From an uncultured Flavobacteriaceae bacterium (GTDB lineage: Bacteria; Bacteroidota; Bacteroidia; Flavobacteriales; Flavobacteriaceae), in the NCBI GenBank assembly GCA_947498845.1, contig CANMLX010000022.1, positions 1,452 to 65,451 of the forward strand: a DNA stretch of 64,000 nt, written 5' to 3'. Below, piece by piece: positions 29,443 to 61,710 of the stretch. Position numbers and translations under genes: made by a program. Below the pieces are notes generated by a model, which was given only the letters and a program-made list of their open reading frames with translations, was not told where the DNA came from and searched no databases. Every line of letters starts with the position of its first letter. The first letter of the stretch is position 1.

Positions 29443-29466
29443 TAATTGGATAAAATCGGATACAAA

Positions 29467-30531
29467 ATGGATATATCTAAAAAAATAGCGTTTCAACCTT
29501 TAATATTTCAGGACATCATACAAAAATTAAGTGTTATAGATACCTTTAAAGGAGGTTGGGATCTTATTGAAAATAAAGAGAAACGTTATTTAAAAGAATT
29601 ACGTGATATAGCTACAATTCAAAGTATTGGTTCATCTACTAGAATAGAAGGGGCAACACTAACTAATGATGAAGTAAAACAATTACTTAAATCTGTAAAG
29701 ATTAGAAAACTGGATAAACGAGAAGAACAAGAAGTTGTAGGGTACTATGAAGCTTTGGAATTTATATTGAAACATTATGAAGATATAAACCTTTCTGAAC
29801 GTTACTTGCATCAATTACATGCTATTCTCTTAAAATATAGTAGTAAAGATCAACGTCACAAAGGGCAATATAAAAACTTATCCAATCAAGTAGTAGCTAA
29901 CTACCCAGATGGTGAACAAAAAATTATATTTAGAACTACCGAGCCACATTTAACAGCCAATGAAATGCATGATTTGATAGTATGGACTAATGGGCAATTG
30001 AAAGAAGAGAAATTGCATCCTATACTTATTACATCTGTTTTTGTTTATGAGTTTTTATCCATTCACCCATACCAGGATGGTAATGGTAGGTTATCAAGAT
30101 TGTTAACTACATTTTTATTATTAAAACAATATTACAATTTCATTGAATACGTATCATTTGAACATGTTATTGAAAACAAAAAGGACATGTATTATAGAGT
30201 ATTGATGGAAACTCAAAAGAATAGAGACACAGATAGTGAAATACTAGACCGTTGGGTGATTTTCTTTTTAGATTGCTTGATAGACCTTACCGAGAAATTA
30301 AAAGCTAAATATCAAACATACAATAATCTAAAAAGTAGCACCAATAATAGACAAAAACAAGTACTCGCTTACATAGAAGAACATAAAACTATTCAGATAA
30401 AAGATTTAGAAGAAAATTTGTCTGATTACTCAAGAAATACACTTAAAAAAGACTTAAAATATTTAGTTCAGGAAGGTTTTATATTGACTACTGGTTCAGG
30501 TCGTGGTGTACGCTATCATGCTAAAGAATAA
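29467..30531 (+). CDS. Fic-family protein (class II, auto-inhibited) with C-terminal winged-helix-like domain
   Basis: Fic motif HPYQDGNGRLSR. N-terminal inhibitory motif S-T-R-I-E-G fits (S/T)xxxE(G/N). C-terminal ~70 aa look like a DNA-binding wHTH. ATG 29467 preferred over TTG 29446. Confidence 0.85.
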   Translation: MDISKKIAFQPLIFQDIIQKLSVIDTFKGGWDLIENKEKRYLKELRDIATIQSIGSSTRIEGATLTNDEVKQLLKSVKIRKLDKREEQEVVGYYEALEFILKHYEDINLSERYLHQLHAILLKYSSKDQRHKGQYKNLSNQVVANYPDGEQKIIFRTTEPHLTANEMHDLIVWTNGQLKEEKLHPILITSVFVYEFLSIHPYQDGNGRLSRLLTTFLLLKQYYNFIEYVSFEHVIENKKDMYYRVLMETQKNRDTDSEILDRWVIFFLDCLIDLTEKLKAKYQTYNNLKSSTNNRQKQVLAYIEEHKTIQIKDLEENLSDYSRNTLKKDLKYLVQEGFILTTGSGRGVRYHAKE

Positions 30532-30785: not shown

Positions 30786-31103
30786 TTAAAGAGACCCAAC
30801 GGTCTTGCTATAATCAACCTCTTTAAGAGTGCCTTCAATAACGTAAACCCACTTGCCTACTTTTTTACCTCCTTTGTAATAGGCAGTAACGACCTTTTTA
30901 CCTTTTTCATCAAAACTAAGCCACTCGCCTTCTAATTTACCATCGGCAGTATAAGACCCAGTTTGGCTTATCTCGCCATTGTCATGATAGTAAACCACGT
31001 CTATTAAGTTGGTGTCTTCGTTTAAGGTTAAAGTACGTTCTTTTTGAGCAAATGTTGATACGCTTATCAATAGTACTGCAATAAGTGTTATATATTTTTT
31101 CAT
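30786..31103 (-). CDS. exported YwqK/MORN-variant repeat protein (orphan immunity-like)
   Basis: Signal peptide MKKYITLIAVLLISVSTFAQ. Repeats DGKLEGEWLSFDEKGKKV / GGKKVGKWVYV. Confidence 0.65.
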   Translation of the reverse strand: MKKYITLIAVLLISVSTFAQKERTLTLNEDTNLIDVVYYHDNGEISQTGSYTADGKLEGEWLSFDEKGKKVVTAYYKGGKKVGKWVYVIEGTLKEVDYSKTVGSL

Positions 31104-31397
31104 AAGTATGTAATGTTTTAGGGGCATATCTAACGCTTCAAGTAATCATTCTATTACAATTAAAAATCTTATTAAAGCTCGTTTTATATGTCTATTATTA
31201 ATTATTTCTATGGCAAATATATATAATAATTAACATTCAAACAACTATTACGTAACATTAAATTAACATTGAAAGTATAAGACACTGATTTTTAGTTTTT
31301 TAATATAGAAAAATAATTAACAAGCAAAGAAAGTATAGTACTACATAATGAGCTAAAATATAGTAAAAGATACCTGTTGTGTATTTGGTTAAAATTC

Positions 31398-31572: not shown

Positions 31573-32871
31573 TCATTGATTTACAATAACTTTCATATTT
31601 AGTTCGTTTGCTAGTTTTTTAATGTTTTTTTGTTTTCTTACCAAGAGTTCTTCTCTGTAAAGTTGAGCCCCTTTTTTAATATAATCCATACCCTCGATGA
31701 ATAATTTCCAGTAGAGTATAGCTAGTTTCCTTGCCATAGCTTTTATAGCTACCATTGGACCTTTGCGACTTCTTAGCCGCCTACCAAATTCACCGATTGC
31801 CGAGGTCTTACTCTTTATTAGGCTTTGGGCAATATTCCTAAATATTCGCCCTGCCTGGTTGTTTGTTCTCTTTTTCTTGGATCGTCTTTTCTTTCCCGAC
31901 CAGTTCTGACCTGGAGCCAACCCCAACCATGAAGTAAAGTGTTTTTCCGTTTTCCATTTACTCAAATCATGACTAGTCTCTGATAAAAGTTTCATCCAAG
32001 AATAATCTGTGATCCCTTCGATTTTAGTAGCATCGATGTTTTTGAATATAGAAAGCATGTTTGCTCCAAGGTTGTCTACTTGGGGTTTGTTATGGCGAAT
32101 TGGTTTTCTTGGACTCTCAAGATTATCATCACTTTTATTCTTGCCTAAAATCTTGATCTGTTTTTCTATTTCTTGGTCACAGGCTTTGATTTGCATTTGG
32201 TAAAATTGATAACTCTGATAGGCTTGTCGCAAAGCAAAAAGGCCAGACTCTGTATAATAGCCCTCCAGAGATTTTAATACCTTGTCTCTCTTTGTTTTCA
32301 AAATAGAACTATGACAAAGGTTGGCTAGCTTCTGTTTATCCCTTGCTCCAGATAATATAGCCTCAATGATGCGTAGACCACTAACACCATGAATTTGACT
32401 CAATACTTCTTTTAATCTAATGTTCATTTCTAAAAGTGCCTTCTGCATATGTTGTATATGCATAGAAGCACTTCTGATATGATCATCCCGAAGCCGTGTA
32501 TAACTTCTAAGGTTTTTCATATGCTCTTCCAATACAAAACATCTGTTTAATAGCCCATAACTGTGTAATTGTTGGATCCATTGGCAGTCCTTGATATCTG
32601 TTTTGCGACCTGGTACTTGTTTGGTTTCACGACCATCTACTAGCCAAGTCTCAAAACCCATCTCCTCTAAAATCATATAGAGTACCATCCAATAGCTGCC
32701 TGTAGCTTCCATGGCAACGCTCTCTATGCCATGAGACTTTAGGTGGTTCCCGCAACTTATAAAATCTTCTGTAAAGGTGTCAAAAACCTTGACCTGTTCA
32801 TTTTCAATGGCTACAAAAATCTGTTGGGCACCAATATCAATACCTGCTGAATGTTTTCTAATTTTTTTCAT
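31573..32871 (-). CDS. IS110-family (DEDD/RuvC-like + Ser) transposase/recombinase
   Basis: 432 aa. AGIDIG, MEATGSYW, KTDIKDCQWIQQLH (DEDD residues), C-terminal HFTSWLGLAPGQNWSGKK. Confidence 0.9.
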   Translation of the reverse strand: MKKIRKHSAGIDIGAQQIFVAIENEQVKVFDTFTEDFISCGNHLKSHGIESVAMEATGSYWMVLYMILEEMGFETWLVDGRETKQVPGRKTDIKDCQWIQQLHSYGLLNRCFVLEEHMKNLRSYTRLRDDHIRSASMHIQHMQKALLEMNIRLKEVLSQIHGVSGLRIIEAILSGARDKQKLANLCHSSILKTKRDKVLKSLEGYYTESGLFALRQAYQSYQFYQMQIKACDQEIEKQIKILGKNKSDDNLESPRKPIRHNKPQVDNLGANMLSIFKNIDATKIEGITDYSWMKLLSETSHDLSKWKTEKHFTSWLGLAPGQNWSGKKRRSKKKRTNNQAGRIFRNIAQSLIKSKTSAIGEFGRRLRSRKGPMVAIKAMARKLAILYWKLFIEGMDYIKKGAQLYREELLVRKQKNIKKLANELNMKVIVNQ

Positions 32872-35963: not shown

Positions 35964-36245
35964 ATGATTTCAGCTAACGAATATTTTGAAGGCAATGTAA
36001 AATCTTTAGGTTATAAATCGGCTAAAGGGAACTCCACAGTAGGTGTAATGGAAGCAGGGGAATACGAATTTGGAACGACTACTCACGAAACAATGATTGT
36101 TATTGAAGGAGAAATGACCGTTAAATTGCCAAATGCATCAAATTGGAAAACATATGTTGCTGGTGAACGCTATGAGATTTCGGCTAATGAGAAATTTCAA
36201 GTTAAGGTTGAGACACAAACATCGTATTTATGTCAATATAAATAA
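35964..36245 (+). CDS. ppnP: pyrimidine/purine nucleoside phosphorylase PpnP (DUF1255)
   Basis: 93 aa. NEYFEGNVKSLGY...VGVMEAGEYEFGT...E.M.V..G is typical of PpnP/YaiE. Confidence 0.85.
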   Translation: MISANEYFEGNVKSLGYKSAKGNSTVGVMEAGEYEFGTTTHETMIVIEGEMTVKLPNASNWKTYVAGERYEISANEKFQVKVETQTSYLCQYK

Positions 36246-36492
36246 CCTGAGTTCGACTTAAGAACACTATTTTTAAAAACACAAGCGCTTATATACCAAT
36301 AACTTAACTTATAAAAGTGTGTTATATCGCTCTTGAGGCTATGAAAATATATTAAATTCTAGCTAAAAACCACTAAACACGCCATCTTCTTCCTTAAATT
36401 ACGATAAACTAGCGCGCTAGTCTATCGTAATTATAAGTTGAATCTAGCATGTTTATTGACTTTTATCTATGATTCTTAAATCGAACTCAGGT
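36245..36492. mobile_element. 248-bp MITE, copy A (TA target duplication, ~20-bp TIRs)
   Basis: TIRs ACCTGAGTTCGACTTAAGAA / TTCTTAAATCGAACTCAGGT, flanked by TA (36243-44, 36493-94). Central palindrome TTACGATAAACTAGCGCGCTAGTCTATCGTAA (36399-36430). No ORF. Confidence 0.8.
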
Positions 36493-36520
36493 TAAATTGA
36501 GTAATGTAATGCAAATAAAA

Positions 36521-53000: not shown

Positions 53001-55793
53001 ATGAAAAAAATTACTCAACTAGTATTTTTTGTTGCCCTATTTTGTGCAACAACAATTATGGCACAAAGCACAATAAAAGGTGTGGTAATTGATGCCGAAT
53101 TCAACTCAGTATTACCTGGCGCTAATGTTGTAGAAAAAGGTACTACAAATGGTGTCTCTACAGATTTTGATGGTAAGTTTACGCTTAAAACACAAAAGGC
53201 TTCAGGAGAAGTAATTATATCTTATGTAGGATATGGTTCGGTTACATTACCATTTAATGGTGATACCAATTTAGGTGAAATCACAATCTCTACAGATAAT
53301 AGTTTACAAGAAGTTGTAATTAATGCTTCTGGTAATATTGATCTTGTAGTAGATAGAAAAACACCAATTGCTGTGAGTACTGTTACAGCTAAAGAAATTG
53401 CTTTAAAAGCAGGGAATATGGAATTTCCAGAAATTATGAATAAAACACCTAGTGTATATGCAACAAAACAAGGTGGAGGTTATGGAGATTCTAGAATTAC
53501 GCTACGTGGTTTTGATCAAAGAAATACGTCGTATTTAATTAATGGTCAACCAGTAAACGACATGGAAAATGGTTGGGTATTCTGGTCTAACTGGCAAGGA
53601 TTAACCGATGTAGCTTCGGGAATCCAAATTCAAAGAGGTTTAGGAGCATCTAAATTAGCGGTGCCTTCTGTTGGTGGTACAGTGTCTATTGTAACTAAAA
53701 ATGCAGCAAAACAACGAGGGGGTTCGCTTTCTACAATGATTGGTAATGACAATTATGTTAAAAGTACCGCAATATACAATACAGGTGTAAATGAAAAAGG
53801 ATGGTCTAGCAGTTATTTAATTGGCAAATGGTCTGGAGATGGTTATGTTTATAATACAAGAGGTGAAGGCTATAACTACTTTTTTGCTGTAGGGTATCAG
53901 CCTGTAGGCTCTAATCATAAATTTAACCTTTCTTTTTTAGGAGCTGGACAATGGCACCATCAAAGAGATGTTGATGTATCAATTCGTGATTATGAAAATT
54001 TTGGAGAAGATGGAATTGACCCAAGATGGAACTCAAACGGTGGTATTTTAAATGGTAAAGAATACAACTTAAGAAGAAACTTCTACAACAAACCTTTAGC
54101 GACACTTAACTGGGATTGGGATATTACAGAAGATCTACAGCTAGCTACAACTGTTTATGCATCATGGGGACGTGGTGGAGGTACTGGTCCTAGAGGGAAT
54201 AACTTTCGTGATGGAGTTGCAGATGTTCTTCCATTTCGTAAAGACCTGACTGAGCACTACTTAGAAAACGAAAGAGGGTCGCGTTTATCAAATGGATTTA
54301 TTAATTTCGATGCTATTGTAGCTAATAACAGAGCTACAACTCAAGGTTATTCTGGAGATATAGCTTCAGATCATTACGCTGGACGATTAATAGGATCTAA
54401 TGGTTTTAGAGAAGATGGTGTTAACAGAGCGGTATTAATTAGAAGAGCCTCAATGAACTCTCATGATTGGTATGGCGCTATTGCAAATCTAAAATATACA
54501 AAGAATAAGTTTACATACTCTCTTGGAGTTGATTTAAGAGATTATACTGGATATCACTATAGAGTAGTTAACGATTTATTAGGTTTAGATGGTTACTTTT
54601 CAACAGGCAATGAAAATTCAGCAGGTCAAATTATTAATACAACAATAGCAGCGAAGCCTTTTAGAGATACTGGGTTAAATGGGCCAAAGATTAATTTCTA
54701 CAATATTGGAAATGTGGGATGGGCAGGAATTAACGGACTTATAGAGTATGATGATGACGAAATATTTGCTGCCGTTTTACAAGGAGGTTATTCTAACCAA
54801 TCTTTCCAAAGAGACGATTATTTTGCACAACCTCATAATCCAATATCAGATACAAAGAATATAGGTGGTGGTTATGTAAAAGGAGGCGTTAATTTTAACA
54901 TCGACGATCAACATAATGTATTTGGTAATGCAGGATACATAAGTCGTCAGCCTAATTTTGATGCAGTATTTCCTGGATTTGCAAACGATATCAATCCAGA
55001 TTTACAAAACGAAGAGATCATTTCTTTTGAACTAGGCTATGGTTTAAAATTAGATAACCTTAATGTTAAATTGAATTTATATAACACAAATTGGGGTAAT
55101 CGTTTTTTAACCCAAAGTGCAGATGTGTTATTGATAGATAATACAGGAGCTCCTATTTTAGATGATGATGGCAATCAAGCTACAGTACAAGGAACAGCTC
55201 AATTTAAAGATATTGACGTAGTTCATAGAGGTATTGAATTAGAAGCAACTTACAAACCTATAAATAAATTGAGAATAACAGGAATGTTATCTATAGGAGA
55301 TTGGAGATATACTAAAGATTTCACCGCAGGTATATTTGATGACAATAACCAACCATTAGGTGAAGAGCTTACACTTTTTTTAGAAGATGTTAAAGTTGGT
55401 GATGCTGCACAATTTACTGCTTTTGGAGAAGTTGATTATAAGATATTAGATAATTTGTCTGTTGATTTAGGTTGTAGATACGCCGATAATTTATATGCAG
55501 ATTATGGTATAGAAGATGATGCGTTTTTTAGTGACGATAATAAAGGAGCGCTTAAGTTACCATCGTTTACATTATTTGATGCAGGAGCTACCTATAGCTT
55601 TAATGTCCTTAAAAAACGAGCTAGTATACGAATTAATGTAAACAATGTATTTGACACACTTTACATTGCTGAGTCTGAAACTAATATACATGCTGAAGAA
55701 GGGGCTGAGACGTGGAATGGTATTGATAAAACAAACTTGGTATGGTTTGGATTTGGAAGAACTTGGAACGCTTCTTTTAAATTCAATTTCTAA
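53001..55793 (+). CDS. TonB-dependent receptor with CarboxypepD_reg N-terminal domain
   Basis: 930 aa with a signal peptide. CarboxypepD_reg (IKGVVIDAEFNSVLPGANVV), plug (ITLRGFDQRNTSYLINGQPVND), barrel ending ...ASFKFNF. Confidence 0.9.
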   Translation: MKKITQLVFFVALFCATTIMAQSTIKGVVIDAEFNSVLPGANVVEKGTTNGVSTDFDGKFTLKTQKASGEVIISYVGYGSVTLPFNGDTNLGEITISTDNSLQEVVINASGNIDLVVDRKTPIAVSTVTAKEIALKAGNMEFPEIMNKTPSVYATKQGGGYGDSRITLRGFDQRNTSYLINGQPVNDMENGWVFWSNWQGLTDVASGIQIQRGLGASKLAVPSVGGTVSIVTKNAAKQRGGSLSTMIGNDNYVKSTAIYNTGVNEKGWSSSYLIGKWSGDGYVYNTRGEGYNYFFAVGYQPVGSNHKFNLSFLGAGQWHHQRDVDVSIRDYENFGEDGIDPRWNSNGGILNGKEYNLRRNFYNKPLATLNWDWDITEDLQLATTVYASWGRGGGTGPRGNNFRDGVADVLPFRKDLTEHYLENERGSRLSNGFINFDAIVANNRATTQGYSGDIASDHYAGRLIGSNGFREDGVNRAVLIRRASMNSHDWYGAIANLKYTKNKFTYSLGVDLRDYTGYHYRVVNDLLGLDGYFSTGNENSAGQIINTTIAAKPFRDTGLNGPKINFYNIGNVGWAGINGLIEYDDDEIFAAVLQGGYSNQSFQRDDYFAQPHNPISDTKNIGGGYVKGGVNFNIDDQHNVFGNAGYISRQPNFDAVFPGFANDINPDLQNEEIISFELGYGLKLDNLNVKLNLYNTNWGNRFLTQSADVLLIDNTGAPILDDDGNQATVQGTAQFKDIDVVHRGIELEATYKPINKLRITGMLSIGDWRYTKDFTAGIFDDNNQPLGEELTLFLEDVKVGDAAQFTAFGEVDYKILDNLSVDLGCRYADNLYADYGIEDDAFFSDDNKGALKLPSFTLFDAGATYSFNVLKKRASIRINVNNVFDTLYIAESETNIHAEEGAETWNGIDKTNLVWFGFGRTWNASFKFNF

Positions 55794-55820
55794 GCCAATA
55801 TCTATAATAAAAACAAATAA

Positions 55821-55854
55821 AAAAGGCTGTCTTTACCAAAAGACAGCCTTTTTT
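55821..55854 (+). terminator. rho-independent terminator after the receptor gene
   Basis: AAAAGGCTGTCTT-TACCAA-AAGACAGCCTTTTTT. Confidence 0.7.
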
Positions 55855-55867
55855 ATGTTGAAATAGA

Positions 55868-55918
55868 ATTTCAAAAGGCACTTTTTAACTCAGTAAATTC
55901 ATTTGGGAATTGGTATTA
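55868..55918. repeat. ~50-bp repeat, possible IS terminus relic, copy 2
   Basis: Matches 6553-6602 (2 mismatches). Its end overlaps the stop codon of the 221-aa gene. Confidence 0.65.
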
Positions 55919-56581
55919 CTCATTGATAATAATACCGTTATTATAAATATACTTTTTAACTTCTTCTCCTTCTGGAGTATAAATAACCCAAATAGCATGT
56001 TTTTTTCCATTGACATAATACCCTCTTTCGTTTAAAATACCTGTATCGTAGTAATAGTCATAGTAATACCCACATCCATTTTTATAGGTTTCGTAATAAT
56101 TTTTTTCGTCTGCTTTATCAAAATCGGTTGATAAGAATGGAGATAGAACTTTTCCATCAAGATCAAATACTTCATATTTTCCATCAAGAATACCATTTGA
56201 ATAATTAAACCTTTTTACAATTACAAATGTATTTCCCTTTTTCCACTCTTTTACCCAAGAACCTTCTTTTTTCCCACCCTTTATCAAACCTTTTAAGTAT
56301 CCAGTTAAATGCGTATTGGTACTATTATTTGGTAGTGAATATAAAGCAATTTTCATATTGGCATTAACTAAAGTAGAATCTTTTACATATATATACAGTC
56401 CTTCATTATTAATTGTCATAACCTGTTTTGCTTCTTCTTCTAAGAGCGGTATTTTTCTAAGATGCTCTGTAACTTCTTCGGTGAGATATTCTCTTTCCAC
56501 GTCTTCAATTACAACTTTCTTTTGCCCTAAGCAATTAAAAAGTATTAGAGATAACAAAAAACTTAATATTCTATGTTTCAT
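55916..56581 (-). CDS. exported YwqK/MORN-variant repeat protein, candidate immunity protein
   Basis: 221 aa. Signal peptide MKHRILSFLLSLILFNCLGQ. Repeats GKKEGSWVKEWKKGNTF, NGILDGKYEVFDLDGKV, NGKKHAIWVIYTPEGEEV. Last gene of the Hcp-toxin operon. Confidence 0.6.
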   Translation of the reverse strand: MKHRILSFLLSLILFNCLGQKKVVIEDVEREYLTEEVTEHLRKIPLLEEEAKQVMTINNEGLYIYVKDSTLVNANMKIALYSLPNNSTNTHLTGYLKGLIKGGKKEGSWVKEWKKGNTFVIVKRFNYSNGILDGKYEVFDLDGKVLSPFLSTDFDKADEKNYYETYKNGCGYYYDYYYDTGILNERGYYVNGKKHAIWVIYTPEGEEVKKYIYNNGIIINE

Positions 56582-56592
56582 AATTAATATAG

Positions 56593-57702
56593 CTATGAAT
56601 AATACGTTTTAATATCAAATTGTATAGCTTTCCATTGCCATTGAAAAAAACTTTTCCGATCACTGTGTCTTTGAAAATAGTCCATAAAGTTATCTTTTGT
56701 ACTAGCTTTTATAGGAAAAACATGCTGATTAGATTTTTTAATAGTTTTAGCTTGTTCAATACGCAATTTTCTTTGTTCTATAGCTTCTACACGATTTTCA
56801 ATAGAGGTCTTTCTACGCTCAATTTTCTTTTCATAAATATTGATATTTCCATTTAAAGTTTTTATATTCTTTATGGCTATTGGATCACTTGGATATTTCT
56901 TCATTTCTTCAAGACGCATAAAAGAAGCTTCTTTTTTTTGTTCAAATTCAGCTATTTCTGTTTTAAAGGTTTGTATTTCCTCTTTCCATTTATTGATGTT
57001 TTTATTATACTGTTCTATTTTCTCTTGCCAATCATTATCAAACGTATGTTCGCACCCCAATACATGTGCTATTTCATGAGCATAAACTGTAGAACTATAT
57101 AAACCATCATAGAAAATACTACAATTTCTTCGTTCTGCAGCCCATAATTGCCCATCACCTGCTGTCCCAGGTTTTTGTATAGGTGTAATGAATAACAAAA
57201 TTCCTTTATGTGATTTTTCTTTTTCGTATTCTGCAATATAAAATTTTCTAACCATTGAACTTACTTGTTCTTTATCTCCTATGAATTTTGCGCCATCATA
57301 AGTAGTTTCTTCTGCGGATAACATTTCTTGAGTCAATTCTAAAATACATTCTGTGGGAACAATTTTTGTTTTAACTAAAGCTTGTTGTAATGAATTGTTA
57401 TTTAAGTAGTTTTCTAAATCAATTATTTCTAAAGCATTGTTTATGCCCTCAAGATCACGCTCTTTACTTTTACTTCTCACCACTTTTACAATCTTAATAT
57501 CAAGATCATAGGTAGTGTCATTTTTAAAAAATGTTATTTTGCCAACAACATCATCATACTTATCCAATAAATCACATACAGTATCTTGACTTAGTGCGTT
57601 GTCGCAAAATACGTTAATGGAGACATCTCCCTTATCCAGATCTTTCACCTTTACTTCTTCAGGTTCAAAACGTATGCCATCTTTTGCTGGAAGCTTTATC
57701 AC
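56593..57702 (-). CDS. zinc metallopeptidase (metzincin HExxHxxGxxH) with coiled-coil insertion, candidate toxin
   Basis: 369 aa with a GTG start. HEIAHVLGCEH at residues 209-219 (nt 57046-57078). About 100 aa of heptad-like K/E-rich sequence follows, then DNFMDYF...FFQWQW. No signal peptide. Confidence 0.6.
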   Translation of the reverse strand: MIKLPAKDGIRFEPEEVKVKDLDKGDVSINVFCDNALSQDTVCDLLDKYDDVVGKITFFKNDTTYDLDIKIVKVVRSKSKERDLEGINNALEIIDLENYLNNNSLQQALVKTKIVPTECILELTQEMLSAEETTYDGAKFIGDKEQVSSMVRKFYIAEYEKEKSHKGILLFITPIQKPGTAGDGQLWAAERRNCSIFYDGLYSSTVYAHEIAHVLGCEHTFDNDWQEKIEQYNKNINKWKEEIQTFKTEIAEFEQKKEASFMRLEEMKKYPSDPIAIKNIKTLNGNINIYEKKIERRKTSIENRVEAIEQRKLRIEQAKTIKKSNQHVFPIKASTKDNFMDYFQRHSDRKSFFQWQWKAIQFDIKTYYS

Positions 57703-58022
57703 ATCATCCTTTTGAGTTTTTCATCATTTAATTTATCTATTTTTAGAAGCAACGAGACATTTTCCTGCTTAGGGAACATACTTAACCAAGGTATAAAATA
57801 GTCTTGCCCTTCTATTTTTGTAGGATTATATTCCTGTTTTAATGCTTCATAGCTTTGACATATCGTTTCATAGTTGGAACGCATCCAATCAAAACCAAAC
57901 TCACCATTATAATCCTCTTTTCTTTCAAGTCTGGCAATAAATTCTAACTCATCTCTTATTTCAATTGAAGTTATAGCTTTAACTTGGTTGTCAATGATAA
58001 GTTCAAAGGTGTTTGTTCCCAT
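57699..58022 (-). CDS. 107-aa protein of unknown function (adaptor, or detached N-terminal domain of the toxin)
   Basis: The ATG abuts the Hcp-like stop codon. The stop overlaps the next start (GTGA). Contains YNGEFGFDWMR. No family recognised. Confidence 0.5.
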   Translation of the reverse strand: MGTNTFELIIDNQVKAITSIEIRDELEFIARLERKEDYNGEFGFDWMRSNYETICQSYEALKQEYNPTKIEGQDYFIPWLSMFPKQENVSLLLKIDKLNDEKLKRMM

Positions 58023-58721
58023 CTATGATGATTTTTTTTGTTTAACAACTTCCAATTTTATTTTTTCCGTATTACTCTTTATTGAATAATTCTCCAGCAT
58101 ATCATTAACAAGTAACTCTTCTTCATATTTAAAATCCTTGGTTTTATCTGCCAGGTTTATTGTTAATGTTTTTCCAACCATATTTTCTGTTTCTGCAACA
58201 ACATAAATATAATCACCCACCTTGTATTCGGGGTTTTTGTTTCCTTCTAAATCGGTAATAAAATAGTCGACAACTTTAGGCTCAGTTTCTTCCTCTCTTG
58301 CCATAGGTGTTGTATTGCTAGTGTAAGTTGTTCTCCAGTGTGCAGAATATTCTCCATCACTACTAGAATCTTTTACACCTCCACATGTTATCTTTAAGGT
58401 TTCGGTCATTGGTTGCTTTCCTATGGCCGAAAAATGATTGCGCCAACCAACAAGATGACAATCATAAAAAAAGAGTTTTCTTGTTTTAGTTCCTAAAACT
58501 CTTGGATAAATATGTAGCTCCAATTGTTTTCTTTGATCTGAAGCAAAAGACCAATCTGCAAGATGTAAATCTCTTCTTGATTCAATTACTAAATTTAAAC
58601 CATTAAATAAAGGATTTCCCGTAGGGCGCCCATTTGTATCTGCCTGTTGATTAAAACCTAAGTTAAAGCTTAGAACATTTACTTCTTTATTATCGATAAT
58701 CAATTTTGCTAGTACGCTCAT
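58023..58721 (-). CDS. tssD: T6SS(iii)-type tube protein Hcp/TssD-like with ~110-aa C-terminal extension
   Basis: 232 aa. The N-terminal ~120 aa follow the Bacteroidota TssD pattern as I recall it: AKLIIDNKEVNVLSFNLGF..ADTNGRPTG...LVIES...KLFFYDCHLVGW...GKQPMTETLKI. The rest is an unrelated beta-rich extension. Confidence 0.7.
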   Translation of the reverse strand: MSVLAKLIIDNKEVNVLSFNLGFNQQADTNGRPTGNPLFNGLNLVIESRRDLHLADWSFASDQRKQLELHIYPRVLGTKTRKLFFYDCHLVGWRNHFSAIGKQPMTETLKITCGGVKDSSSDGEYSAHWRTTYTSNTTPMAREEETEPKVVDYFITDLEGNKNPEYKVGDYIYVVAETENMVGKTLTINLADKTKDFKYEEELLVNDMLENYSIKSNTEKIKLEVVKQKKSS

Positions 58722-58812
58722 GAATTATTTTATAGATTTTTAGTTTTCTAAATTAAGAAAATTCCACACAATAAAAGTATTAAGATTCGTATAAAATATT
58801 AAAAAACACTTA

Positions 58813-58820
58813 CAAACATA
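58813..58820 (-). promoter_or_regulatory. candidate -7 promoter box (TATGTTTG on minus strand) for the Hcp-toxin operon
   Basis: Matches TAnnTTTG ~92 nt upstream of ATG 58721, with a TTG ~23 nt further upstream. Confidence 0.3.
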
Positions 58821-58882
58821 GTTCGGCTTAAATATCTAAAAGTCAAGAGTTTCTTTTTTAAATAAAAAGACAATTAAAATCG

Positions 58883-58890
58883 TACTTTTG
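58883..58890 (+). promoter_or_regulatory. Bacteroidota -7 promoter box (TACTTTTG)
   Basis: Matches TAnnTTTG, 24 nt upstream of ATG 58914. Confidence 0.4.
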
Positions 58891-58913
58891 GAATAAATTT
58901 CAACGTTATATTT

Positions 58914-59363
58914 ATGAAGAAGTGTTTTTTAATTTTAGTGTTTTTTGTGTCTTATTTGGGGTTTTCCCAAAACAACTATATCGTTAAAACAGAAGATGGT
59001 AGACGCGTACTACTAAAAGCAGATTATACCTGGGAGTATATAGATTTAGAAAAACCAACAAATACTTCTAATGTTCAAACATTGCCAGGAGCTACGAAGA
59101 ATAATTCTTGTCATGTGGCTTCAAATTTTGAAGAGCCCAAGTTGAATAAAAAAATACAAGCACAACTTAAAAAAGGTCGCGCTACCATTAGTCATGTAAA
59201 AAAGAAGGTTGCTAAGGATTATAACTGTACCGTAGATCAAGTACTGCTGTTATCTGCTAAAGAACAAAAATCAAGAGATGTTTACTATTTCTGCGCAAAT
59301 GGTACAAAAGTAACCTATAAACGTGTAGGGAATTCTATTTTAAAGGCAATAAAGGTTTTTTAA
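58914..59363 (+). CDS. secreted hypothetical protein
   Basis: 149 aa. Signal peptide MKKCFLILVFFVSYLGFSQ, four Cys. Divergent from the Hcp operon. Confidence 0.55.
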   Translation: MKKCFLILVFFVSYLGFSQNNYIVKTEDGRRVLLKADYTWEYIDLEKPTNTSNVQTLPGATKNNSCHVASNFEEPKLNKKIQAQLKKGRATISHVKKKVAKDYNCTVDQVLLLSAKEQKSRDVYYFCANGTKVTYKRVGNSILKAIKVF

Positions 59364-59604
59364 TAAAAAGGTCTGTAAAGATATTTAACGAACACAAAAC
59401 TAAAGGTGAATTTGACGTAAAAAAACATTTTTATTCCTGTTTTTCCTGTAAAATTAAAGGTTGTTGCCTTGAGCACAGTTTAAAGGTCTTTAAAATCCAG
59501 AATTTAAATTAGGGCTCGATTTCACTCTTGACAAAACAAATTATTCCATAATAATCAGATAACTAATTTTACCTTATACGATTTACGATTAAAATTTTCG
59601 TACA

Positions 59605-59715
59605 TGTCAGTTCGAGTGTTTTTTATGAAGAGATAACGAAATAAAAAATGTATCGAGAACAGGTTAGCAGTTTCTCGATACATCACGCTAAGGCGTGACA
59701 CTCAAAGAAATGACA
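59605..59715. repeat. R2 palindromic-ended repeat, copy 3
   Basis: Left end TGTCAGTTCGAGTG. Hairpin GTATCGAGAAC...TTTCTCGATAC. Right-end reverse complement TGTCATTTCTTTGAGTG. A further right-end-like fragment ends at 59533. Confidence 0.6.
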
Positions 59716-59740
59716 AAAATATTTATACGAAATTAAATTA

Positions 59741-59989
59741 ACCTGAGTTCGATTTAAGAATCATAGATAAAAGTCAATAAACATGCTAGATTCAACTTAT
59801 AATTACGATAGACTAGCGCGCTAGTTTATCGTAATTTAAGGAAGAAGATGGCGTGTTTAGTGGTTTTTATCTAGAATTTAATATATTTTCATAGCCTCAA
59901 GAGCGATATAGTACACTTTTATAAGTTAAGTTATTGGTATATAAGTGTTTTGTGTTTTTAAAAATAGTGTTCTTAAGTCGAACTCAGGT
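59741..59989. mobile_element. 249-bp MITE, copy B (inverted relative to copy A)
   Basis: The reverse complement matches 36245-36492 with ~7 differences (~97%). Flanked by TA (59739-40, 59990-91). Confidence 0.8.
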
Positions 59990-60052
59990 TAAATTACGTA
60001 ATAAATCGTATTATACCAGTTCTAGTATTTAGAATACAATTCCTTATAAAAC

Positions 60053-60085
60053 AAAAAACTGCTCCGAGAGTAGAGCAGTTTTTTT
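60053..60085. terminator. bidirectional terminator downstream of the anti-sigma-like gene
   Basis: AAAAAA-CTGCTC-CGAGAGTA-GAGCAG-TTTTTTT. Confidence 0.65.
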
Positions 60086-60126
60086 GATATTAACCCTTAA
60101 GGCTAATATCCGATCTAACCAAAAAC

Positions 60127-61710
60127 CTAAAATTTAATGCCGAATCCAGTATAAACTCCGAGGAAAAAAGGCTGGAAATCGCCAGATGTATTATTAAACG
60201 TATTAATTTGATATTTAAACATAGGCTCTAAATTCAAATTAATCTTCTTTGATATTTTATAGTTTAGCCCTAAACCAATATTAGCACTATAACTTGCCTT
60301 ATTAACGTTAGCCCTATCATCTATGGTCACTGTTTGACCTTCACTACGAGAAGACAAATCACTTTCAACTAAAAGAAAGGAACTAAAACCTCCAATAACA
60401 TTAACACCAAGTCTCTTATTAGAAATAGCATATTGAATTTCCAAAGGAATCTCTATAAATCCAAAAGACTGATTAACAGATGTAGAAGATGTCTCAAAGG
60501 TAGATGGTGTATCGTCTGTAAAAGCAGATGCGCTAACAAAAGACACAGCCCCGTCTGCAGACTCTAAACCTTCCACTTTATTTCTATTAACAACATTGCT
60601 TAAAGCTACTGCTCTAGAACTTATTGTAGGGGCTTTAAAAGATAATATATCATTTGTATTATAAGCCAGATTCACCCTATTAATTCCAGACCTTATGCTC
60701 AACCTATTATTTACAGCATAACTAGCATTAATACCATAGCTCATATTTACTTCTCCGCTTTTTGAGTTATTGTTAAATTGTGACCCTATTGTAGAGCCTT
60801 CTCCTATACTACTAAAATATACAGGAGCTACATTTGGAGCTACACTCCATTTTTTATTTGAGTTATCAACAGATTCTTCTTCCAACAAAGATTCGTTTTG
60901 TGCTATAGCATCTTCTATAGCTTGTTTTTCTTCTTTGTTTTCTACTACTTTTTCTACTGTCTCTTCTTCTACTACTTTAACCTTTTTTTCTATGTCTTTA
61001 AAAGCATCTTTTTTATTGGCAATCAAAGTTTTATCATTACTTTCTTTAAGTATTTTATCCTCTATAATTACTTTAGAATTACTGTTTAAAGGGGGCTCTT
61101 CATTTTTAATATGCTTATTTACAGGTTCTCCTTCAGTAGTTTTTAGGGTAGCAGTACTACTCTTGCTATCTACAATTAAAGGCTTGAGCTTATTTTCTCT
61201 TTGCTTTAAAACAGGTAGTTGGTTTAATTGTTCTATAGTCTCTTTACCTTTATTTGAAGTTGCTACCGAAGATGATTTTTTATTAGACTTAACACCTGTT
61301 TCTGTTGTTTTAACGTGTAACGATGTACTGTTTTTAGGGTTATTTTGGCCTTGATCGTTAGCTATCTCGATACCTTTATCTTGAGATGTTAAATTATTTA
61401 GTTGTACCTCTTCTTTTTTAATCGATGGAGCATCTTGTTTAACATTAATAGTATCATTGTTATTTATATCAACAACTTGCTGTGTAACAGTTTCTTTTTT
61501 AGAATTAAAATACAAAACGCCTACAGTAAAGAATAATAGCAATGCGGCTGCTACACCAGCGTAACGCCACCAAATAGGAAATACGTTATGTTTTTTCTTT
61601 TTCTTATTAAGCTCCTTTTCTATTTTATCCCAAACGGCATCATTAGGAGTCACTTCAAAATCTTTAAAGCGCTCTTGGAATAATCTATCTATGTTTTTTT
61701 TATTTCCCAT
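60127..61710 (-). CDS. anti-sigma-like membrane protein with C-terminal outer-membrane beta-barrel-like domain
   Basis: 527 aa with one TM (YAGVAAALLLFFTVGVLYF). Low-complexity K/E/N-rich linker. C-terminal ~220 aa have alternating beta-strand character and end ...GFGIKF. Lies 2 nt downstream of the ECF sigma gene. Confidence 0.6.
   Translation of the reverse strand: MGNKKNIDRLFQERFKDFEVTPNDAVWDKIEKELNKKKKKHNVFPIWWRYAGVAAALLLFFTVGVLYFNSKKETVTQQVVDINNNDTINVKQDAPSIKKEEVQLNNLTSQDKGIEIANDQGQNNPKNSTSLHVKTTETGVKSNKKSSSVATSNKGKETIEQLNQLPVLKQRENKLKPLIVDSKSSTATLKTTEGEPVNKHIKNEEPPLNSNSKVIIEDKILKESNDKTLIANKKDAFKDIEKKVKVVEEETVEKVVENKEEKQAIEDAIAQNESLLEEESVDNSNKKWSVAPNVAPVYFSSIGEGSTIGSQFNNNSKSGEVNMSYGINASYAVNNRLSIRSGINRVNLAYNTNDILSFKAPTISSRAVALSNVVNRNKVEGLESADGAVSFVSASAFTDDTPSTFETSSTSVNQSFGFIEIPLEIQYAISNKRLGVNVIGGFSSFLLVESDLSSRSEGQTVTIDDRANVNKASYSANIGLGLNYKISKKINLNLEPMFKYQINTFNNTSGDFQPFFLGVYTGFGIKF

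Follow-up and report, generated by a model that had tools for sequence, protein, structure and literature searches.

The stretch analysed here (64,000 nucleotides (nt) of contig CANMLX010000022.1 from an uncultured Flavobacteriaceae bacterium, hereafter the window) carries at 55916-58721 four open reading frames (ORFs) of 232, 107, 369 and 221 amino acids (aa), all on the minus strand. A previous sequence-only reading of this DNA had taken them for a compact operon of four genes, namely an Hcp/TssD-like carrier (gene 1), a 107-aa ORF (ORF 2), a toxin candidate with a metzincin motif (ORF 3) and an exported immunity candidate (gene 4). The four ORFs and the packing that it described are indeed present: the TAG stop of gene 1 (58023-58025) abuts, in the same frame, the ATG of ORF 2 (58020-58022), a GTGA start/stop overlap is found between ORF 2 and ORF 3 at 57699-57702, and the spacer 5′ of gene 4 is 11 nt long (56582-56592). 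However, the locus consists of three genes, not four: a TssD carrier, a split effector gene and an exported partner. In our view this is probably an auxiliary ‘orphan’ module of a type VI secretion system of subtype iii (T6SSiii), made up of a TssD carrier, a metzincin effector whose gene is frameshifted and an exported immunity candidate. As a kind, such a module is ordinary; the protease family is unstudied, and in this genome the module is probably decaying.

Each homolog of ORF 3 is one continuous protein. A TssD domain, an ORF 2-like part and an ORF 3-like part succeed each other in a protein of Aquimarina muelleri (611 aa) and in one from a metagenome (602 aa), whereas Tenacibaculum sp. 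encodes the toxin on its own, as a protein of 481 aa (P0003) whose first ~105 residues match ORF 2. Indeed, ORF 2, which carries a GEFGFDW motif (57885-57905), aligns to residues ~20-105 of this intact ortholog as well as to a central segment of the TssD-toxin fusions P0002 and P0004, and it matches the hidden Markov model (HMM) of the toxin family with E=1.3e-34. Toxin-family homology extends 5′ of the GTG of ORF 3 (57702), up to 57717 and in the frame of ORF 3 (KDDVIKLPAKDG; KDDVIKLPAKDGIRFEP), and where the homology shifts to this frame ORF 2 drifts out of frame into its stop. Comparison with the DNA of four orthologs placed a deletion in the A4 run at 57710-57713 (CTC AAA A(A)G GAT GAT, within CTCAAAAGGATGATG), the A5 run at 57717-57721 being a less likely alternative site. 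When one A is added to the A4 run, a single ORF of 476 aa is restored, which is collinear with P0003 (53% identity over 461 aa, E=1e-158), and all of the ~114 relatives read through the break point as one ORF. On these alignments, ORF 2 and ORF 3 are the halves of one effector gene of ~476 codons, broken by a 1-nt deletion. The 107-aa ORF, which had been left as an independent gene of no named family, is the severed N-terminal part of the toxin, and, as the two ORFs are one gene, the GTGA overlap is a by-product of the frameshift.

Could the four ORFs nevertheless be four functional genes, with the 107-aa product acting as an adaptor and the 369-aa protease being made by termination-reinitiation at the GTGA or by -1 slippage? 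The stop-start overlap exists, and in the ortholog model the break lies in the loop that joins strands 98-107 and 115-117, so that the two chains might in principle associate. However, the split is not a conserved arrangement in any of the ~114 relatives or 27 genomic loci, the homology in the ORF 3 frame runs on 5′ of the GTG, and a canonical X XXY YYZ slippery heptamer is absent from the site as we read it; we consider four separate genes very unlikely. Programmed -1 frameshifting was rejected as the principal explanation, since neither A-run presents such a heptamer, and transcriptional slippage was also rejected, the A-runs being too short.

One effector gene with a single lesion thus has to be interpreted. 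Because the N-terminal part of the toxin is severed by the deletion, the effector encoded in the window is probably inactive or undeliverable; the copy as sequenced probably cannot make the full-length protein, which would leave the carrier and the immunity gene as the only clearly functional parts. The products of gene 4 and of the RecA, PGI and SOD genes of the source contig are present in the protein collection and those of genes 1 to 3 are absent from it, which suggests a pseudogene call in the source record. Furthermore, independent decayed copies of the toxin family exist in Flavivirga aquatica (locus L004) and on a metagenome contig (L033), with fragments in three other loci (L011, L029 and L032), so that decay of such modules appears to be common. 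Conversely, nothing may be wrong with the module: the A lacking at 57710-57713 would then be a sequencing or assembly error, and the cell would make a normal 476-aa effector. The frameshift is the sole lesion in the gene, the remainder of its 1.43 kb being 53-57% identical to the orthologs and free of other stops; it falls in a homopolymer, and the source is a draft assembly, the contig measuring 74.6 kb. Against this, on most platforms homopolymer errors would be expected in longer runs than four or five A, and the decayed copies elsewhere indicate that real decay is common in the family. We regard an intact module as a minority possibility that carries some weight, and a true frameshift as the better reading.

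The assignment of gene 1 is more direct. It matches the Pfam TssD family (PF17642) with 103.1 bits (cut-off 25.8; E=1.3e-29), its residues 1-130 covering profile positions 1-128 of 128, that is, end to end, and it also matches the sequences of two solved structures, Hcp1 (6bdc, E=1.3e-8) and a Bacteroidales TssD (7yw0). By these sequence criteria gene 1 is a genuine TssD/Hcp of T6SSiii, and the profile search thereby bears out the first reading of its N-terminal half. The TssD part occupies aa 1-136 (58314-58721), and is followed by a conserved C-terminal domain (CTD) of ~85 aa at aa 148-229 (58035-58280). This CTD is common to seven extended proteins of 222-269 aa, six of which match the TssD HMM, and which are encoded directly upstream of toxin homologs in two species of Tenacibaculum, Algibacter lectus, Rapidithrix thailandica and two metagenome-assembled genomes (MAGs); it is also present inside a fused TssD-toxin (P0038).

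An extended TssD (225-269 aa) lies directly 5′ of a toxin homolog in six genomes or loci. In Tenacibaculum sp. the TssD-CTD (261 aa), the toxin (481 aa) and a homolog of gene 4 (236 aa) follow each other in the order found in the window, all of them intact, and the same order occurs in T. gallaicum, A. lectus, Rapidithrix and a Flavobacteriaceae MAG (five further loci overall). The boundary between gene 1 and the effector gene, marked by the TAG, is natural because the same split is found intact in Tenacibaculum, Algibacter and others. The Hcp and toxin domains of the window are therefore not parts of one polypeptide, the TAG following the CTD. We had also entertained one ancestral fused gene with two lesions, the TAG and the frameshift; its TAG part was rejected, as the boundary between TssD-CTD and toxin is conserved and intact in several genomes.

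The TssD nearest to that of gene 1 (P0102, 62% identity) is found on the marine metagenome contig L033 (1061-2675), where it is fused directly to the N-terminus of the toxin. This TssD-toxin gene is itself broken, into pieces of 266 and 225 aa, and a phage tape-measure-like gene (PF10145) is found on the same contig.

The effector is recognised by its zinc site and its Met-turn. The HEIAHVLGCEH motif of ORF 3, already noted from the sequence, spans aa 209-219 of the 369-aa ORF (57046-57078), and the Met-turn NFMDY aa 338-342 (56677-56691), the two being separated by a helical insert of ~100-110 aa. In an alignment of 22 sequences the H, E, H, G and H of HExxHxxGxxH and the N, D and Y of NxMDY are invariant, and the Met of the Met-turn is nearly so, occurring in at least 90% of the sequences; the residues of both sites are also highly conserved in an alignment of 89. 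At the motif the window protein stays below the thresholds of Reprolysin_5 (23.3 bits, cut-off 27) and Peptidase_M10 (19.1 bits, cut-off 24), and no match to Peptidase_M43 was obtained in the Pfam scan.

We therefore turn to structure, the fold being that of the intact ortholog P0003 rather than of the window protein. An AlphaFold model of P0003, built from 89 sequences of the family, was confident (predicted local distance difference test (pLDDT) 92.8; predicted template modelling score (pTM) 0.88). It presents beta-rich N-terminal domains (about residues 35-188), then an alpha/beta catalytic domain, in which the active-site helix and the Met-turn are separated by an insert of two antiparallel helices of ~45 residues (338-379 and 386-436). 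The best Foldseek matches of the model in the PDB were ADAMTS-5, adamalysin II, atrolysin C, ADAM33 and other snake-venom metalloproteinases (probability 1.00, E=1e-5 to 1e-4, target-normalised TM 0.43-0.50), with fragilysin-3 next. Judged from this model, the effector is an adamalysin-like metzincin lying outside the curated Pfam families, which is in line with the toxin candidate first proposed from the motif.

The family is sizeable. An exhaustive search with its profile returned 260 representatives at E<=1e-30, a number that rises to 1,080 at E<=1e-10; some members form the C-terminal ends of proteins of more than 1,100 aa. It occurs in marine and soil Bacteroidota, and our literature search brought up no study of this metzincin family or of the TssD CTD, and nothing specific on the T6SS of Aquimarina-like genera. 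A 702-aa protein on a contig of a Limnohabitans sp. MAG, binned as a betaproteobacterium (L024), also matches the toxin-family HMM (E=1e-23); this could reflect mis-binning or a transfer outside the Bacteroidota.

How is the family linked to the T6SS? A TssD domain is present in 21 of 114 relatives and a DUF4280 domain, which we take to be PAAR-like, in 12, while 4 carry a precomputed Peptidase_M43 flag (PF05572). In Pedobacter petrophilus the toxin homolog stands directly after VgrG, within a cluster that comprises ClpV, TssC (PF17541, E=2.7e-229), four TssD genes and a Tle1-like effector. A toxin homolog also follows VgrG in a Flavobacterium, and that of F. chilense has an N-terminal DUF4280. 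The toxin domain is thus joined to varied trafficking forms: fusion to TssD, fusion to DUF4280, a position next to VgrG with another N-terminus, and carriers of more than 1,100 aa. Such an exchange of delivery modules is typical of a polymorphic T6SS toxin.

We also considered that the Hcp-like gene might derive from a phage tail or from an extracellular contractile injection system instead of a T6SS, given that P0102 shares its contig with the tape-measure-like gene. This origin seems to us most improbable: PF17642 is the TssD family of T6SSiii, the structures matched by gene 1 are a Bacteroidales TssD and Hcp1, and the relatives adjoin TssC, ClpV and VgrG. In the same T6SSiii cluster of P. 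petrophilus as the metzincin effector, a 774-aa protein with a Tle1-like phospholipase domain (L014, 13669-15993) is flanked by further TssD genes.

The third gene of the module, gene 4, starts with a leader (56525-56581) made up of a positively charged N-terminus and a hydrophobic core, followed by a cysteine, Cys17, which the alignment shows to be conserved across the family. Up to this Cys the relatives have LSSC or FISC, both typical lipobox sequences, with a Gln 2-3 residues beyond the Cys. Gene 4 is thus predicted to be exported, probably as a lipoprotein. Its product is 57% identical to that of the gene after the fused TssD-toxin of A. muelleri, and in most related loci the profile of its family matches the gene immediately 3′ of the toxin, where several copies often stand in tandem. 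An orphan copy also occurs in A. aquimarini, within an array that follows a different TssD-toxin.

The YwqK/MORN label first given to gene 4 holds only at the level of the family, in which 11 of 32 members match MORN_2 (PF07661, best E=6.3e-8) and 10 match the LIC20035 family adhesin model (NF033566), but gene 4 itself has no MORN_2 match in Pfam at E<=1. Its C-terminal half has putative MORN-variant-like repeats. A sequence search of the PDB with gene 4 and with the family profile gave nothing significant.

Both the leader and the conserved place of the family behind the toxin fit the exported immunity candidate and the periplasm-acting toxin of the sequence-only reading. We infer, on good grounds, that gene 4 encodes the immunity protein and, because this conserved partner is exported, that the toxin would act in the periplasm. 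In A. aquimarini (L005, 6815-12843), seven small genes are lined up behind the gene for a TssD fusion of 606 aa whose C-terminal toxin is of another type; two of the seven belong to the gene 4 family (68% and ~44% identity), and the whole looks like an orphan-immunity array.

The nearest structures raise another possibility. Adamalysin-like proteases and fragilysin act on eukaryotic substrates, and the antibacterial toxicity of the family is predicted from sequence; the metalloprotease could then be an anti-eukaryotic or extracellular protease delivered by the T6SS, and gene 4 an unrelated exported protein. However, the strict co-occurrence of the protease with a small exported partner, the tandem arrays and the orphan copies form the signature of an immunity gene, and we hold it quite improbable that the target is other than bacterial.

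An antibacterial module could work as follows. The TssD-CTD subunit would enter, at low stoichiometry, the Hcp tube of a T6SSiii encoded elsewhere. Gene 1 would serve as the dedicated carrier of the adjoining effector, a job that in close relatives the covalent TssD-toxin fusion would do, and the effector would be presented non-covalently by way of the CTD and of its own N-terminal region. Contraction would then bring the protease into the periplasm of a neighbour, where it would cleave an envelope substrate, while the exported gene 4 protein would block it in the producer’s own periplasm. More speculatively, the CTD may be a docking domain for non-covalent carriage of an effector of ~55 kDa, the family switching repeatedly between covalent (TssD-toxin, TssD-CTD-toxin) and non-covalent (TssD-CTD and separate toxin) modes, with a new class of metzincin, a new envelope target and a MORN-like lipoprotein inhibitor. 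This we offer tentatively, as a possibility well short of the likelihood that we give to the orphan module itself.

Several points weigh against our reading of the locus. The first is the lone frameshift discussed above, which, in a well-conserved sequence of a draft genome, could be a sequencing or assembly error, the module then being intact. Second, as noticed at the outset, the window holds no secretion machinery: a Pfam scan of its 46 ORFs of at least 120 aa returned none of the T6SS machinery families, the matches including PGI, RecA, SOD, DXP synthase, TonB-dependent receptors, an ECF sigma factor, GH2, an M23 peptidase, an IS110 transposase and a Fic protein. Third, gene 4 falls below every Pfam and NCBIfam threshold, and where structure prediction succeeded for the P0003 ortholog, the gene 4 model, built from four sequences, was too poor to be used (pLDDT 39). 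Finally, that the effector is an active protease and toxic, that it acts in the periplasm and that gene 4 neutralises it are predictions for this family.

The block is bounded on both sides by terminator-like hairpins, as had been proposed (Table 1). The one at 55817-55856 is common to gene 4 and to a convergent TonB-dependent receptor gene, and a second one, at 60053-60084, closes the block on the other side. About 90 nt 5′ of gene 1, TATGTTTG is a possible promoter element by its sequence, TAnnTTTG being the consensus of the Bacteroidota -7 element. The block had also been described as bracketed by mobile-element relics. This stands upstream of the module, where a miniature inverted-repeat transposable element (MITE)-like element of ~262 bp is found, but on the gene 4 side there is the terminator alone and no such relic. 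The element has two near-identical copies in the window, in opposite orientations, with terminal inverted repeats (TAAATTAACCTGAGTTCGAYTTAAGAA) and an internal palindrome, for which no match is expected by chance.

Table 1. Positions in the window of the module and of the features that surround it.
Feature	Position	Strand	Evidence
Gene 1: TssD/Hcp of T6SSiii with CTD	58023-58721	-	Pfam PF17642, PDB sequence matches
ORF 2 (107 aa): effector N-terminal part	57699-58022	-	Ortholog alignment, toxin HMM
Frameshift site: A4 run	57710-57713	-	Three-frame translation against ortholog DNA
ORF 3: beta-rich and metzincin catalytic domain	56593-57717	-	Motifs, ortholog model
Gene 4 (221 aa): exported candidate immunity protein	55916-56581	-	Synteny, family alignment
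Bidirectional terminator hairpin	55817-55856		18-bp stem and T-run; inverted repeat
Possible Bacteroidota -7 promoter element, TATGTTTG	58813-58820	-	Fits TAnnTTTG; motif search
MITE-like element, 27-bp terminal inverted repeats	59734-59996		Upstream of module; second copy at 36238-36499

Just 5′ of gene 1 lies a divergent ORF of 149 aa on the plus strand (58914-59363), with a signal peptide and a match to DUF3157 (E=2.5e-7). Elsewhere in the window, a 113-aa protein with a signal peptide and MORN-variant-like repeats is encoded on the minus strand at 30786-31127, with a Fic-domain gene (29446-30531) on one side and an IS110-family transposase (31573-32871) on the other; it weakly matches the gene 4 family HMM (E=4e-5) and, by this likeness, could be an orphan immunity-like gene. 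An Rfam scan of 55000-61000 gave sub-threshold matches alone, located at the terminators, a PADLOC scan gave no match, and an NCBIfam scan of the four ORF products returned nothing meaningful.

For this genome, the annotation should be corrected to three genes, with a frameshifted toxin that is probably decaying and an immunity gene that is kept. Beyond it, little is known of T6SSiii effectors other than those of gut Bacteroidales, and the locus points to a sizeable, unnamed family of metzincin effectors. The ways in which this effector is loaded also amount to a natural experiment, one toxin being found fused to Hcp, beside an Hcp-CTD gene, fused to a PAAR-like domain or next to VgrG. Its periplasmic substrate, and inhibition by a MORN-like lipoprotein, could reveal a new vulnerability of the envelope.

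How does the module compare with known systems? Effectors fused or adjacent to Hcp, orphan Hcps and metallopeptidase toxins acting in the periplasm have all been described (PMC4714493, PMC13213661, PMC6899460), and the locus is therefore of a known kind. In the Bacteroidales, evolved Hcp-toxin fusions are known from GA2 T6SS loci, together with occasional hcp genes outside T6SS loci (PMC4714493), and the Hcp-ET proteins of Enterobacteriaceae are likewise evolved Hcp effectors (PMC4714493; cited in PMC11148199). The link of an N-terminal Hcp/TssD to a toxin, followed by an immunity gene, is the same here, and 21 relatives, including the 611-aa protein of A. muelleri and the 602-aa metagenome protein, are such fusions. 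However, in the window the TssD gene closes with an ~85-aa domain of its own and a stop codon, the toxin being a separate gene; this toxin is a metzincin protease and not a nuclease or a deaminase; and the host is a marine member of the Flavobacteriaceae in which the locus is not part of a T6SS cluster.

Functionally, gene 1 has its closest analogy in the minor Hcps of Bacteroides fragilis, Hcp1-Hcp2, which recognise Bte1, the effector encoded next to them (PMC13213661). In both cases hcp stands directly 5′ of the effector and immunity genes with which it is paired, and it co-segregates with the effector. B. fragilis uses a pair of plain Hcps, whereas the window has a single TssD with an additional C-terminal domain, in an orphan module.

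VgrG2b of Pseudomonas aeruginosa is a T6SS metallopeptidase toxin that acts in the periplasm and has an exported immunity protein (PMC6899460). The window would share with it a T6SS-delivered zinc metallopeptidase directed at the periplasm of the target and neutralised by an exported immunity protein. The protease, an adamalysin-like metzincin with a helical hairpin insert, nevertheless belongs to a different family and fold class, the carrier is an Hcp rather than a VgrG, and the T6SS is of subtype iii rather than i.

Among proteases, the adamalysins/reprolysins (M12B), the pappalysins (M43) and fragilysin have the same HExxHxxGxxH, the same NxMDY Met-turn and the same overall catalytic fold. 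The window protein differs from them in that it stays below the Pfam cut-offs, in its antiparallel helical insert of ~100 aa and in its beta-rich N-terminal domains with GEFGFDW. As for immunity, proteins of the MORN-variant (PF07661) or YwqK type are, like gene 4, small repeat proteins encoded immediately 3′ of a polymorphic toxin. The YwqK of Bacillus is cytoplasmic; gene 4, in contrast to proteins of this type, has a signal peptide or lipobox that points to export, and lacks a significant MORN_2 match of its own.

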